The notes under the pieces were generated by a model that saw only the letters and a list, made by a program, of their open reading frames with translations, was not told the origin of the DNA and did no database searches. A stretch of DNA of 64,000 bases, taken from NCBI GenBank assembly GCA_030295235.1, contig AP026179.1, positions 1-64,000 of the forward strand, in the 5' to 3' direction. The position numbers and the translations under genes are program-made. Numbering within the stretch: the stretch's first letter is position 1; the number at the start of each line of letters is the position of its first letter. This document shows positions 1-58,373 of the stretch, piece by piece. The stretch comes from Fistulifera solaris. Lineage: Eukaryota.

Positions 1-292
1 CCTAACTCCTAACTCCTAAACCCTAACCCTAACTCCCAAACCCTAACCCTAAACCCTAACTCCTAACTCCTAACTCCTAACTCCCTAACTCCTAACCCTA
101 ACTCCTAACTCCTAACTCCTAACTCCTAACTCTAACTCCTAACTCCTAACTCCTAACTCCTAACCCTAACTCCTAACCCTAACTCCTAACTCCTAACCCT
201 AACCCTAACCCTAACCCTAACCCTAACCCTAACCCTAACCCTAACCCTAACCCTAACCCTAACCCTAACCCTAACCCTAACCCTAACCCTAA
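1..292. repeat. Telomeric repeat tract (C-rich strand): mixed CTCCTAA/CCCTAA at 1-196, pure (CCCTAA)16 at 197-292
   Basis: Read directly at the window start; CCCTAA is the complement of canonical TTAGGG. Confidence 0.95.
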
Positions 293-357
293 CGGAAGTG
301 TGCAATAGTTGGAAGTGTGCAATAGTCGGAAGTGTGCAATAGTCGGAAGTGTGCAAT
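293..357. repeat. Telomere-adjacent 17-bp tandem repeat CGGAAGTGTGCAATAGT, about 3.8 copies
   Basis: Copies start at 293, 310 (T variant), 327 and 344. Confidence 0.9.
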
Positions 358-454
358 CTCACTTCTCAGTTCTCATATCTCACATCTCACTTCTCACATT
401 ACACTTTTCACATCTCACTTCTCACATCTCACTTCTCACTTCTCACTTCTCACA
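358..454. repeat. Degenerate 7-bp repeat (TCTCAC[T/A])n
   Basis: ctcacttctcagttctcatatctcacatctcacttctcacatt... read directly. Confidence 0.85.
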
Positions 455-3090
455 TTGCACTTGCACTAATTGCACAACTAGCACTTGCACTTTGCACTAC
501 TTGCACAACTTGCACTTCAACTACTTGCACTTGCACTTGAACAACGCACTTGCACTTGAAGAATGCACTTGCACTTGAACAGCGACTTGCACTTGAAGAA
601 TGTACTTGCACAACTTGCACTTGCACAACACACAACTTGCACATCGCGACTTGCACAACCTGCACAATGCACTTGCATTCTTGCACTTGCACAACCTGCA
701 CAATGCATTTGCACTTCTTGCAAAACGCGACTTGCACAACTTGCACTTGCACTTGAACTTGCACTTGAACAACACTTGTACTTGCACAACGACTTGCACA
801 ACTTGCACTTGCACAACTTGCACTTCAACTACTTGCACTTGCACTTGAACAACGACTTGCACTTGAAGAATGCACTTGCACAACTTGCACTTGCACTCCC
901 ACAACTTGCACATCGCGACTTGAAGAATGCACTTGCACAACTTGCACTTGCACTCCCACAACTTGCACAACGACTTGCACAACTTAAAGGATGCACTTGC
1001 ACAACTTGCACAACTTGCACTTGAACTACTTGCACTTGCACAACGCAGACTTGCACTTGCACAATGCACTTGCACAATGCACTTGCACAACTTGCACTTG
1101 CACTCGCGACAACGCGACTTGCACAACCTGCAAAATGCACTTGCACAACGACTTGCAAAACTTGTACTTGCACAACCCTGACAATGCACTTGCACTACTT
1201 GCACTTGCAGAACCTGCACAACGACTTGCACTTGCACAATGCACTTGCACAACTTGCACAACGACTTGCACAACTTGAAGAATGCACTTGCACAACTTGC
1301 ACTTGCACTACTTGCACTACTTGCACTTGCACAACTTGCACTTCAACTACTTGCACTTGCACTTGAACAACGACTTGCACTTGCACTTGCACAACACACA
1401 ACTTGCACATCGCGACTTGCACAACCTGCACAATGCACTTGCACTTGCACTTGCACAACCTGTACAATGCATTTGCACTTCTTGCAAAACGACTTGCACA
1501 ACTTGCACTTGCACTTGAACTTGCACTTGAACAACACTTGTACTTGCACAACGACTTGCACAACTTGCACTTGCACAACTTGCACTTTAACTACTTGCAC
1601 TTGCACTTGAACAACGACTTGCACTTGAAGAATGCACTTGCACAACTTGCACTTGCACTCCCACAACTTGCACATCGCGACTTGCACAACCTGCACAATG
1701 CACTTGCACTTGCACTTGCACAACCTGCACAATGCATTTGGCGCTTCTTGCAAAACGCGACTTGCACAACTTGCACTTGCACTTGAACTTGCTCTTGAAC
1801 AACACTTGCACTTGCACTTGAACAACGACTTGCACTTGCACTTACACTTGAACAACGACTTGCACTTGAAGAATGCACTTGCACAACTTGCACTTGCACT
1901 TGCACTTGCACTCCCACAACTTGCACAACGCACTTGCCTAACTTGCACTTGCACTTCACTTGCACAACTTGCACTTGCACAACTTAACTTGCACAATGCA
2001 CTTTCACAACTTGCACTTGCACTCGCGACGACGACTTGCACAACCTGCAAAATGCACTTGCACAACGCAGACTTGCAAAACTTGTACTTGCACAACCCTG
2101 ACAATGCACTTGCACTACTTGCACTTGCAGAACCTGCACAACTTGCACAACGACTTGCACAACTTGAAGAATGCACTTGCACTACTTGAAGAATGCACTT
2201 GCACTACTTGCACTTGCACAACTTGCACTTCAACTACTTGCACTTGCAGAACCTGCAAAATGCACTTGCACTTGCACAATTTGCCCATAACTTGCACAAC
2301 CTGCACAATGCACTTGCACTTGCACTCGCGACAACTTGCACTTGCACAACATGCACAACGACTTGCACAACTTGCACTTGCACTTGCACTACTTGCACAA
2401 CTTGCACTTGCACAACTTGCACTTCAACTACTTGCACTTGCACTTGAACAATGCTCTTGCACTTGAACAACGACTTGCACTTGAACAACACACTTGCATT
2501 TGAAGAATGCACTTGCACAACTTGCACATCGCGACTTGCACAACCTGCACAATGCACTTGCACTTGCACTTGCACAACCTGCACAATGCATTTGCACTTC
2601 TTGCAAAACGACTTGCACAACTTGCACTTGCACAACATGCACAACGACTTGCACAACTTGCACTTGAACAACACTTGCACTTGCACAACGCGACTTGCAC
2701 AACTTGCACAACGCGACTTGCACAACTTGCACTTAAACTACTTGCACTTGCACTTGAACAACGACTTGCACTTGCACTTGAAGAACGACTTGCACTTGAA
2801 CAATGCTCTTGCACTTGCACAACTTGGACTTGTTTTGCACAACGACTTGCACAACTTGCACTTGCACAATGCACTTGCACATTGCACTTGCACAACCTGC
2901 ACAATGCACTTGCACTTGCACTTGCACAACCTGCACAATGCATTTGCACTTCTTGCAAAACGACTTGCACAACTTGCACTTGAACTACTTGCACTTGCAC
3001 TTGAACAATGCACTTGCTTTTGCACTTGCACTTGAACAACGACTTGCACTTGAACAACGCGACTTGCACTTGCACAACTTGCACTAGCAC
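455..3090. repeat. Subtelomeric complex satellite built from ACTTGC / ACAACTTGC / ACAATGC modules with recurring higher-order blocks
   Basis: About 2.6 kb of (ACTTGC)-based units. The block AACCTG(C/T)ACAATGCATTTG(C/G)..CTTCTTGCAAAACG recurs near 692, 1457, 1722, 2577 and 2929. Confidence 0.95.
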
Positions 3091-3105
3091 CGGGTTGTTA
3101 TAGCT

Positions 3106-16556: not shown

Positions 16557-16950
16557 CCCAGAAAATCTGGGGCATGAAGCGGGTCCGGTGTTTTCACATT
16601 GCCGCATACCCAGAAAATCTGGTGGTGTTGTGTTTTGACCTTACCAGAACATCTGGGCAGGTTGCTGTCATTTACCCAGAAAATCTGGGAGTCGAGTCTG
16701 GTGTCTTCGGTGCATTGCATGAATTGTTTTGAAGATACAAGTACTAGAGTCTGGTGTCTTTACTTGTACGTGCATTGCATGAATTGTTTTGAAGATTTTT
16801 TTGTTTTATCAAGAACAAACACTAAAAAATTTATTCCTAATTCCTAAAGTCAGAATGTAATTTTGACATTCGATTGTTCAAAATACAAGGTACTTGTACA
16901 CGGAAAATTCGGGGCGGGAAGCGTCGTCGTGCATCACCAGAAAATCTGGG
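16557..16950. promoter_or_regulatory. Cluster of five CCCAGA-AAA-TCTGGG-type inverted-repeat motifs in the divergent intergenic region
   Basis: Copies at 16557-16571, 16609-16622, 16644-16657, 16675-16689 and 16937-16950. The regulatory role is inferred. Confidence 0.55.
16829..16872 (-). repeat. Dispersed hairpin-containing repeat, copy 1 (reverse orientation)
   Basis: The reverse complement reads GAATGTCAAAATTACATTCTGACTTTAGGAATTAGGAATAAAT, shared with 40907-40989 and 58286-58373. Confidence 0.75.
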
Positions 16951-40906: not shown

Positions 40907-40989
40907 ATGTGACAAAATGAAACGAAAAAGGAAAATTCAGTGGAATGTCAAAATTACATTCTGACTTTAGAAAATTAGGAATAAATAAA
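40907..40989 (+). repeat. Dispersed hairpin-containing repeat, copy 2
   Basis: TGAAACGAAAAAGGAAAATTCAGTGGAATGTCAAAATTACATTCTGACTTTAGAAAATTAGGAATAAATAAA, shared with 58286-58373 and 16829-16872. Confidence 0.75.
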
Positions 40990-41061
40990 TATCTATTGCA
41001 GTGTTTTAATAATTCCGGTGAGACGTGACATCATTATTATTTTATGCTAGATGTTTTGAGT

Positions 41062-44000
41062 GGGAGACTTCCGTTAGGTCTCCAACCAGGGTGAACCTCT
41101 TCCGATAGCTCTCCCGTTAGGAGAGACGTTAACTGACTACATTCAACTTTACAGTAGAGTACGCGCCATTGGATGTGGTACTAATTACTTAAAGGCCTTC
41201 CATCCATCATTAGTTCTACTTAGGTCACGCACAATAACCGCACAATCGTTCGCGTTGTGCGTTTGTTCCGTTCCGACTGCCGACAAGATGATCAGAACGC
41301 TGCATTCCTTATTGTCATAGTTGCCCTTCCGTTCCTACTGTTGCTCTTTTACAACATTAACATGTCGATCATTGAAACGAAGGAGGCGACGATCATTCGT
41401 CACGATTATGCAAAAATATGGGGCACTTCCTCCAACCGGTCCGTATGATTTTGAAAAGTTTCTCTATGGTGCACACTCGGGTCATCTGTCGACAATTCTA
41501 GAGGATGAAGATGTGGAACCAAGCACCGCACATAATGCTTTTGCCTCAAGTCCCGCAACAACAGAATATTCAGTAAATGAAATGCCAACAACTAGAACAA
41601 AGAGGAGATCCAAACAAGTAACGAATTTAAAAGCGCAGAAGGCAAGTCCATCTACCGCAAAGTCATCGATATTGAAGACAGCGACCGCATCCAGACCGAA
41701 TTTGAAACCACCGCCGACCACAACAGCTTGTGCTTCCAGTCCAGCAACAACAGATTTTTCATTAGTCAAAATGGCAACGAGAAAGAGGAAAACGGCCGGA
41801 AACAGCCACCAAATCAAAAAGCTGAAGGAACAAGTCCCGCCACAACTGATTCGTCAATCTTTGAGAGGCCGACCATGAAGAGTCAAAATCTGAAGCCACC
41901 ACCTGATATCAGAGCTCATGCCTTGACTATCGAAGTCTTCAATGAATGAGAATACAACACAAAAAAGGAAAAGATCGAAACTGACAGCAAATTCCAGAGC
42001 CAAAGGCCCGACTCATGCCCGTAAAAAGAAGTTGAAACCGCCACCGATTGCAGAAGCAAAAGCAGGAAGTCCCGCCACAGCAGTTTCTTCCATAGTTGAG
42101 ATGCCAACTATGAAGAGGGGTAATCTGAGAGCACTGCCAAGATCTCATTCAAACAGTCCAACAACCGAAGTATCACGATTCCTGAAGATATGATTATAAA
42201 GATACCGAAGACAGAACCCACTAATGCAAGTCCCGCCCACGTCTGCTAGTGACGATTCATCACATGTATTTAAAAGGCGATTAGACATCCAAAAGAAGAA
42301 TGCAAGTCCCGCCAAATCCGGTAATCTCAGTGACGATTCGTCGCATTTCCTGAAAATGCCGGCTAGATCTGCGAAGAAAGAACTTGGCACAAAATGAAGC
42401 GCTCTCAAGTTCATTTTCAGTGGGTATTCCGAAAACCAGAAGAACTTCGTGAGAGCTATAACAAGTCCCGCTACTGCCACTAGTGGGACCTCATCACAAT
42501 TCTTGAGAACACCCTTCGACCTGAGACGTAAGATTGTAGATCCCAGAAATGAAAATCAATTTTCATTACGCCGACAACAAGTAAGGCAAATTGGAGTAGC
42601 CCCTTTGCAACCCCCCAGTCATTACTGATGAACCATCAAAGATCGTATCCTATTTTTACGACACAGCTTATCCATTTGTGGGAACCATTGAGCAATTAAA
42701 TTGTTTGGTTCAAGAACACGAGTTTGATATTCCAGAATCATTTCACGGAAACGGAAACAAATGATTTAACGATGAAAAGAAGGGCTTCAACCCGAAAACG
42801 CAAGGGAAGCAAACCAGCGAGGACTTGTGAGTGAGAACAATATTGCAATCCACGTGCAGCGGAATACTCTTGCAGAGACAGCAAAAGGAAAGAAGTGGAA
42901 TAGAATCATTTATCACTGTAGGGACAAGAAAGAATGGAAACGATCTGATTTACAACAAAGAAGATGCCAGGGGATCTCTTCGGTCACTCCTTTTTGCAAT
43001 CCAGTGCAAAGGGGGCGTTGATAAAGGTCGCGAGTCGTCCACGACCTGAAGAGGGAAAGAAGCATCATATCAAGGTGCTAAGTGGTGCCACGGCATCCAT
43101 AACCAGTGAATGCCTTGAAATTATGAACTCGCAATGTTATTTCAATGACGATTGTGAACAGTTTCCTTGAAAGCATAACAAGCAAGACCGTGAACGGATG
43201 AGGGAGTTATTGCACACCCGTCGTATGTCATGAGTAATCTGTGGGATTCCGCCAACCAAAATATTAAGAGAGAGGGTAGACTGCAGCTTAGTTCAGCGTT
43301 TGTGGCATTGAATTCTATGACAAAATCGAACAATTTGGGCATTCATTTATTCCCTATGTGCAAGGAGAGGCACTGGTGGTTGATGGTGGTTGATGCCGAT
43401 AATCGAGTTATTTATTCGCTCGACTCCCTCGAAGATCCGGACGATCACTACTCTAATGCTGTCTGGCTTTCAGGTTTATTTAAATTCGCGTGCGGTGAGG
43501 CAGCAATTAGAATGCGCGTCAACAAGCGAGCAGCAGGAATCAACATTACCCGATTTAGCTCCGTGGGAATACCAAGAAATGCGTCTTCCCAATAAACTAT
43601 TGCAACATGATGGCCATAGTTGCGGACCATATGTATGTTTTTATGCGGCGACAATTCTGAAACATGGTCGACGTGCCCTCAATGAGAGGACATGGTTCCT
43701 TGACTCTATTTCGGAGATTGGAGTCGGAGATGATCTCCGACCTTTTGTATTTGATGTTATGTTTCAATTGGCTGAATGACACGTATAGAGTAATGTGTGA
43801 TATTAATCAACCAAGTCTAGTTTGAAACTGAAATTGTGTAGATTGGGTTTTGATTATTTACACGAAGTAGTTTTCGACGAAAGCCTTGATCGGTGGAAGG
43901 TCACGTAGGCTGGGTTTTTCTTTATTGGAAGGTCGCTCGCTGCATCAGGGTCACGTAGGCTGGTTTTTCTTTATTGACAATTGAGAGCGGTCGCGCTCGC

Positions 44001-44271
44001 TGACTTTTCTTTATCAAGAGCGGTCGCTTCGCTGACTATTGTTTATTGAGGATTTGGTTATCTTAGAGGGGTGATTCATGAATCATCCGGGACTGTCATT
44101 CATAAGGCTTTGTTACTTTATCGAGCAACCTAAGTAGATTCTAAGTAATTAGTACCACATCCAATGGCGCGTACTCTACTGTAAAGTTGAATGTAGTCAG
44201 TTAACGTCTCTCCTAACGGGAGAGCTATCGGAAGAGGTTCACCCTGGTTGGAGACCTAACGGAAGTCTCCC
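41062..44271. mobile_element. Non-autonomous Mutator-like (MULE) DNA transposon, 3,210 bp
   Basis: Identical 130-bp TIRs (41062-41191 and 44142-44271, starting GGGAGACTTCC) and a 9-bp TSD GTTTTGAGT (41053-41061 and 44272-44280); no DDE transposase recognisable. Confidence 0.92.
41362..43779 (+). pseudogene. Degenerate Ulp1/SENP-like (peptidase C48) gene carried inside the MULE; catalytic domain about 43130-43779
   Basis: YFNDD, LFPMCKERHWWLMVVD (His), YSLDSL (Asp) and LQHDGHSCGPYVC (Gln/Cys). It is preceded by S/T/K-rich ASPAT repeats and has multiple stops and frameshifts. Confidence 0.75.
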
Positions 44272-44291
44272 GTTTTGAGTCACGTATGGCT

Positions 44292-58285: not shown

Positions 58286-58373
58286 ATGTGAAAAAGTGAA
58301 ACGAAAAATGGAGAATTCAGTCGAATGTCAATCAAGATTACATTCTGACATTAGGAAATTAGGAATAAATAAA
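58286..58373 (+). repeat. Dispersed hairpin-containing repeat, copy 3
   Basis: TGAAACGAAAAATGGAGAATTCAGTCGAATGTCAATCAAGATTACATTCTGACATTAGGAAATTAGGAATAAATAAA. Confidence 0.75.

Follow-up and report, generated by a model that had tools for sequence, protein, structure and literature searches.

Mutator, CACTA, Ginger and Crypton elements repeatedly carry peptidase domains of the Ulp1 (C48) type, whose role has been called unknown or merely proposed (PMC2836005, PMC13317346, PMC3212892, PMC2528002). Within the Mutator group they are reported from hydra, lancelet, Arabidopsis, maize, rice and melon, and the Ulp1 of both Ginger and Mutator elements has been suggested to act in transposition or repair (PMC2836005). 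Mutator-like elements (MULEs) and CACTAs of grapevine carry Ulp1 (PMC2528002), in rice some ULPs are joined to the transposase domain of a MULE (PMC12903978), and the oomycete CryptonF/CryptonS elements carry a Ulp1-related C48 peptidase (PMC3212892). For diatoms, MuDR1_TP and MuDR2_TP have been named (PMC2725143). We found no published diatom MULE with a C48 domain; supplements and Repbase entries such as MuDR1_TP could hold one. In this study we analyzed a transposable element (TE) at 41053..44280 of a 64,000-nt stretch of the diatom Fistulifera solaris (assembly GCA_030295235.1, contig AP026179.1, positions 1 to 64,000, forward strand; hereafter, the window). Our best explanation of this locus, which as a whole we hold to be very probable, is that the element belongs to a non-autonomous form (3 copies) which arose by internal deletion from a young, autonomous diatom MULE (21 copies), and that the frame breaks in the window copy are long-read consensus errors of the assembly.

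The window element, its parent protein and its copies

The search for longer proteins with the protease part of the window element yielded a single protein out of 576 candidates, P0002, which is 1685 aa long and encoded on a JGI contig of 9217 nt. A second member of its cluster comes from an NCBI record of 5853 nt and is identical over the overlap, so that the intact open reading frame (ORF) is on record twice. The order of domains in P0002 is an N-terminal Cys/His domain, a DDE core (D244, D307, CxxH at 331-334, E474), SWIM (577-591), a CCHC knuckle (758-771), a low-complexity linker with eight SP[AST][TK] repeats (947-1250) and C48 (H1551, D1568, Q1628, C1634). In MULE DDE transposases a CxxH motif follows the second D, as it does here; D244, D307, C331-H334 and E474 are invariant in P0002 and its relatives P0004 and P0005, and are kept in a third relative, P0024. 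In the Atlas placement of its parts, the nearest transposase clusters of P0002 were MULE (0.94) and its nearest protease clusters C48 (0.96), and the protein passes Pfam Peptidase_C48 (PF02902; 28 bits vs a cut-off of 20.7). The closest solved structures to the C48 domain are SENP2/SENP1 (E 4e-6), and the domain retains the aromatic residues of SENP1/2 at the positions of the SENP tunnel. An AlphaFold2 model of the domain built from a 2-sequence alignment had a mean predicted local distance difference test score of 36.7 and was not used. No shorter transposase relative was found among 5141 candidates.

Compared with this protein, the window copy consists of residues 1-35 joined in frame to residues 921-1685, a product of ~801 aa that is mainly linker and protease. 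The C48 domain is thus the C-terminal domain of the parent transposase, the front of which the window copy has lost, and not a cargo replacing a transposase, which is how an earlier, sequence-only reading of the locus had described it. The deleted residues 36-920 comprise the N-terminal Cys/His domain, the DDE core, SWIM and the CCHC knuckle, leaving the copy without a transposase of its own. In agreement with what had been noted from the letters alone, no transposase or DDE domain match was present in the eight window frames scanned with Pfam or in the comparison with P0002; two of these eight frames match Peptidase_C48 with E-values of 0.001 and 0.021, both below the cut-off. The deleted piece was also considered as a spliced intron and this was ruled out, its ends being AC..CA rather than GT..AG.

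The element is bounded by exact copies of the target-site duplication (TSD) GTTTTGAGT at 41053..41061 and 44272..44280 (no strand). Inside these lie the 130-bp terminal inverted repeats (TIRs), at 41062..41191 on the plus strand and 44142..44271 on the minus strand, which are 130/130 complementary, a long-TIR structure characteristic of Mutator/MULE elements; the sequence of the left one recurs unchanged in both TIRs of each of the 22 other two-ended copies. All internal features are on the plus strand. The transposase ORF starts at 41362..41468 (residues 1-35 in the alignment to P0002) and contains a second ATG at 41408 corresponding to the start of P0004. The blunt, in-frame deletion junction at 41468..41469, with ~2.65 kb missing, has breakpoints common to the copies L040 and L049. 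It is followed by an S/T/P/K-rich linker at 41469..42620 (residues ~921-1300; eight SP[AST][TK] repeat units plus basic runs), by a stretch at 42620..43098 weakly conserved with respect to P0004, and by the C48/Ulp1-family protease domain at 43099..43779 (stop codon 43777-43779), in which the catalytic codons were located at 43371 (His), 43422 (Asp), 43603 (the oxyanion Gln) and 43621 (Cys). Between the stop codon and the right TIR there is a 3' non-coding region (43780..44141), in which short direct repeats occupy a subterminal position. The sequence-only reading had thus described the perfect TIRs, the perfect 9-bp TSD and the His-Asp-Cys triad plus Gln correctly, and its assignment to the Mutator-like elements is borne out by the long TIRs, the 9-bp TSDs, and the DDE and CxxH residues of the parent protein.

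The assembly comprises 51.7 Mb in 62 contigs, the window beginning at the telomere of one of them (C43). A TIR search returned at least 40 perfect matches (40/40 scored, of 48 candidates), and a DNA search with the protease region located 24 places of 98-100% identity, the window included. Both TIRs, identical in every case to those of the window, are present at 22 of the 23 other places, 20 of these copies being 5846-5873 bp long and two short (3197 and 3207 bp); the remaining place, L051 (C16), has a long interior and a garbled right end. With the window copy the family therefore counts 21 long (5.85 kb) and 3 short members. The genome-wide search suggested from the sequence alone has in this way yielded the long copies, the intact ORF with its Ulp1 domain (P0002) coming from the protein search. 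Consensus positions 406-3057 are missing from each of the three short copies, which are found at different sites with different TSDs. Of the 23 two-ended elements, 16 have an exact 9-bp TSD, 2 have one of 10 bp and 4 have one of 9 bp offset by one extra terminal G/C (as judged by eye), while L033 has none; across the family these lengths correspond to the 9-11 bp of the Mutator/MULE superfamily.

Two copies deserve a separate remark. The right end of L051 (6102-6500) resembles a noisy, unpolished element end and marks low local assembly quality. L033 (C18:848116-853966) is a full-length copy whose flanks have no TSD in common; it may be a recombinant of two insertions, border an adjacent deletion or reflect a misjoin.

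The family is recently mobile, because the insertion site of the full-length copy L031 is empty in sample X2, where the target is present once. At the window locus the best paralogous stretch (C42, 72% identity) stops short of the insertion point; an empty site, as looked for by the sequence-only reading, is thus available at L031. X2 also carries a C>G difference within the TIR (L031:591). At L031:916 and 970, X1 and X2 show the same loose ends, which come from a diverged relative matching this short stretch alone.

Because the breakpoints are shared and the TSDs differ, the short form would be the product of one deletion followed by movement in trans. The deletion probably arose once, through faulty repair of an excision gap in which 2.65 kb was lost, and the short form would then have moved at least twice with the help of the parent transposase. 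Such a transposase would bind the TIRs and cut and paste with a 9-bp duplication, steps that are established for MULEs. The recent trans-mobilisation by an autonomous partner that had been supposed from the window alone agrees with the 21 long copies and with the identity of the TIRs in the two-ended ones.

Frame breaks and read depth

Small indels were counted with P0002 as the reference, there being sites at which no assembly copy carries the right letters. By this count the window copy has 19 indels and the 20 long copies 25-40 each. The variation among copies forms 103 clusters, 89 of which have a CG within 4 nt vs 41.0 ± 4.7 expected from 1000 random placements. CG sites are altered in 0 of 18 cases within the terminal 190 bp vs 130 of 245 in the interior. 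The three short copies have no derived allele in common, and their pairwise differences (18, 22 and 24 of 53 clusters) compare with a mean of 21.8 for the long copies; the error count is independent of the orientation of the element in the contig (39.8 vs 39.2). Short-read contigs of X1 and X2 on L031 agree with the intact protein: all 12 listed indel rows (of 39) and 5 substitution rows match L031-vs-P0002 differences. Over its aligned span one X2 contig (5421 nt) falls short of L031 by 5 nt, exactly the net excess of L031 over P0002. Since the frame breaks are CG-linked, not shared by descent, and contradicted at the listed rows by short-read contigs that side with the intact protein, we read them as assembly errors. 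The pristine ends set against a disrupted interior, a contrast stressed in the sequence-only reading, are then an artefact of the assembly.

A probable source of these errors is the miscalling of 5-methyl-CG, which would make the copies CG-methylated. The genome has 11 DNA-methylase matches, one of them with DNMT5-like motifs. Nanopore consensus errors are reported to concentrate at methylated motifs (PMC6591954), and DNMT5 to CG-methylate TEs of diatoms (PMC9998398). Miscalls at methylated CG would survive polishing inside near-identical repeats, and the ends would be corrected via their unique flanks. As a practical lesson, young transposons riddled with frameshifts in this assembly may be intact, and the pattern of errors may map CG methylation. 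In keeping with a diatom host, the silicon-transporter family (PF03842) has 23 matches in the genome, with a top score of 742 bits. Several of the multi-copy genes of this family are interrupted across frames (C23, C24, C29; L105-L109), possibly by assembly errors too.

The depth of the element relative to its flank is ~20x in X1 and ~8x in X2, contig depth being a rough measure; X3 and X4 contain only small pieces of the element. X1 was treated as DNA since it covers the flanks. Within X1, contigs of the kept part have depths of 459.4-459.9, a contig lying mostly in the deleted part 396.9, and the flank ~21. The step of ~63 is three times the flank depth, i.e. ~3 extra copies of the kept part, and for an X1 contig across the right breakpoint the depth predicted (422.8) is close to that seen (421.5).

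Relatives, alternatives and a possible role of the protease

The same domain order is found in three relatives. P0004 (1434 aa) has 43% identity to P0002 in the transposase part and 35% in the tail; the other two are P0005, of 1337 aa, and P0024, of 1894 aa and with ~22% identity. A profile search returned 44 proteins, 13 of which had E-values no higher than 1e-10. When 21 C48 domains of the clade were aligned (the window-family piece and 20 relatives), the H-W-D-Q-C set was complete in 13, the remaining 8 rows being fragments or poorly aligned at one end. Because relatives at 22-43% identity keep both fusion and triad, the transposase-C48 fusion is old.

The C48 tree was built from 31 rows, among them the 4 fusions, as many host ULPs and the metagenome locus L093; the other 22 were further matches picked for coverage, and no labelled plant MULE ULP was included. 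In it the four terminal-fusion C48s group with 11 unlabelled rows, apart from the host genes that we labelled, by their motifs, as ULP1-, ULP2- and SENP8-like. The closest host ULP has 26% identity over 111 aa (E 2e-5). The family C48 domain is thus placed by the tree in a TE-borne lineage, as had already been proposed for it, and not among the host ULPs.

The clade is represented elsewhere in the genome. L086:2092-6521 (C2) is a second MULE-C48 family, a single copy with ~263-bp TIRs, broken frames and the same domain order; its transposase is closest to P0005 and no TSD was seen. L084:3592-6288 (C38) and L085:3357-5606 (C39) form a syntenic pair from the same MULE clade, with long open frames in which SWIM is kept and the second D, the CxxH and the C48 motifs are lost; no TIRs were found, and by their sequence features the two are host-domesticated genes derived from the MULE-C48 clade. 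L087:4053-4685 (C18) is a decayed C48 relic of the clade type with stop codons, for which no TIRs were found. L114:1607-6836 (C17) is another MULE-like element; its inverted repeats measure 33 bp, one of its frames carries SWIM, and it gave no tblastn match with the four fusion proteins.

A different arrangement is present at L093:62-5968, a JGI contig and one of three metagenome loci, which encodes a more distant MULE transposase (26% identity) in the order DDE core, a different C48, then SWIM-like and knuckle-like motifs; the ends of the element lie beyond the contig. This C48 is 37% identical (E 2e-53) to the host ULP2-like gene, to which it is sister with a support of 99/98, and the GT-AG introns of the two agree in position and phase. 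A single clade of all five MULE-borne C48s is rejected (approximately unbiased test, p-AU 1.6e-56, long branches being present). As read from these comparisons, an L093-type MULE took the host ULP2-like domain independently, intron included. This second capture suggests repeated selection for a C48 domain.

Several observations weigh against the interpretation of the window element as a deleted copy of a MULE-C48 parent with spurious frame breaks. The only Pfam transposase family matched by P0002 is MULE (PF10551), at 16.2 bits (E 0.014) and below the cut-off of 27.6, with P0005 reaching 23.8 bits; the support of the terminal-fusion clade is 87/75, unstarred; and L033 has no TSD. The agreement on indels rests on 12 of 39 rows, from short-read contigs that were aligned to L031 and not to the window copy itself. 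Besides CG, the error sites show a mild enrichment of GC (57 vs 41.8) and of no other dinucleotide, and the silicon-transporter paralogs used as a control for CG errors (~65% identical) are too diverged to inform. The deletion junction is absent from the X1 contigs listed, leaving depth as its short-read support, and two X1 contigs cross the breakpoints unbroken. From the missing junction and the error-rich assembly one could argue that the 3.2-kb form does not exist and is a collapse of a full-length copy, but this is highly improbable given that the same breakpoints occur on three contigs and that the depth step in X1 is consistent with ~3 extra copies of the kept part. Even less credible is a Pack-MULE-like element with a captured host Ulp1 cargo that later decayed while the ends stayed pristine. 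The window copy taken alone, with no DDE and many frame breaks, does look like this; on the other hand, everything inside it can be aligned with the parent element, C48 forms the tail of the parent transposase ORF and is distant from the nearest host ULP in both identity and grouping (apart from ULP1, ULP2 and SENP8), and the breaks are CG-linked, not inherited in common, and absent from the short-read contigs at the listed rows. We therefore retain the internal-deletion derivative as the preferred interpretation.

With respect to function, because the catalytic residues are conserved down to 22% identity, the C48 domain is probably an active ubiquitin-like-protein isopeptidase that is useful to the mobile element. 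Its substrate is most likely SUMO, a preference we hold with moderate confidence. The loss of motifs in the domesticated pair L084/L085, although one event, fits usefulness to the mobile element. In the parent, the C48 domain tethered to a TIR-bound transposase may strip the modifier from the transposase itself or from chromatin or repair proteins at the element ends, a proposal we consider tentative and close to evenly balanced. In the short copy the protease, left without a DNA anchor, is most likely a passenger, and any product would be untethered. Viral CE-clan proteases process polyproteins, and it is possible, if rather unlikely, that C48 here is likewise a self-processing protease releasing the transposase from a polyprotein, or that it acts on ubiquitin or NEDD8 rather than SUMO: the long unstructured linker between domains, the distance from all host ULPs and the weak matches of some clade members to viral C57/C5 profiles point in this direction, but the best solved matches are SENP1/2, including the tunnel aromatic residues, and the one linker Gly-Gly pair of P0002, compared by eye, is not kept in P0004. 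We find it improbable that the short form is instead a selected helper, whose free ~800-aa protease would strip SUMO from silencing factors and aid all copies in trans. The in-frame deletion does keep the start codon, the upstream region, the basic linker and the four catalytic residues, the short form did spread to three sites, related MULEs gained C48 at least twice, and plant KIU/VANC-Ulp1 is an anti-silencing precedent (PMC13317346). Yet one deletion in three stays in frame by chance, and the present one happened only once; the short copies are outnumbered (3/24), they share the CG-linked error pattern with the long ones and so look methylated, and the targeting part of VANC is a DNA-binding domain, missing from the short product. 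Anti-silencing as such, which the sequence-only reading had supposed, is possible; the dense CG methylation suggested by the errors in all copies may disfavour a strong form of it. Similarly doubtful is the broader scenario in which diatom MULEs recruited SUMO-type proteases more than once and an in-frame, protease-only mini-element spreads as a trans-acting helper; if true, it would make the diatom host a simple, editable system for testing transposon-borne Ulp1 domains.

Surroundings of the element and comparison with known systems

At its start (1-3100) the window has a telomere in which CCCTAA and CTCCTAA units are mixed, and after it come ~2.6 kb of a subtelomeric satellite based on ACTTGC. 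A short dispersed AT-rich repeat occurs in both orientations at 16841-16876, 40938-40973 and 58332-58357, one copy being situated ~80 bp left of the element; it is possibly a small mobile element or a regulatory motif.

The window element is a very young MULE derivative, and its family is a diatom example of the known Ulp1-bearing Mutator design. The near-identical mobile copies of this family, its intact fusion, protease-only derivative and empty site together make the role of the domain testable in a diatom. Animal Mutator/MuDR elements (hydra, lancelet) and Ginger1, with its C-terminal Ulp1, likewise combine a DDE transposase with Ulp1/C48 (PMC2836005); the window family differs from them in being from a diatom and in having SWIM and CCHC, no PHD seen, and a long repeat linker. 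The plant Ulp1 MULEs (Kaonashi/KIU, melon, rice, grapevine) belong, as here, to the Mutator superfamily with C48. However, KIU is a separate, VANC-fused gene in non-TIR VANDALs (PMC13317346), whereas the window family has long perfect TIRs and its C48 within the transposase ORF. The oomycete Cryptons, although they are stramenopile transposons with a Ulp1-related peptidase, are tyrosine-recombinase elements without TIRs or a 9-bp TSD (PMC3212892). Among diatom elements, those of MULE-Diatoms group 37 are MULEs with no extra domain listed in the passage cited (PMC6446971). The active MULE of Phaeodactylum tricornutum (10.1101/2023.01.02.522487) resembles the window family in its diatom host, long TIRs, 9-bp TSD, SWIM, recent mobility and deleted derivatives, but carries instead a UBR-type E3 ligase gene, the words 'protease' and 'SUMO' occurring 0 times in the main text of that report.

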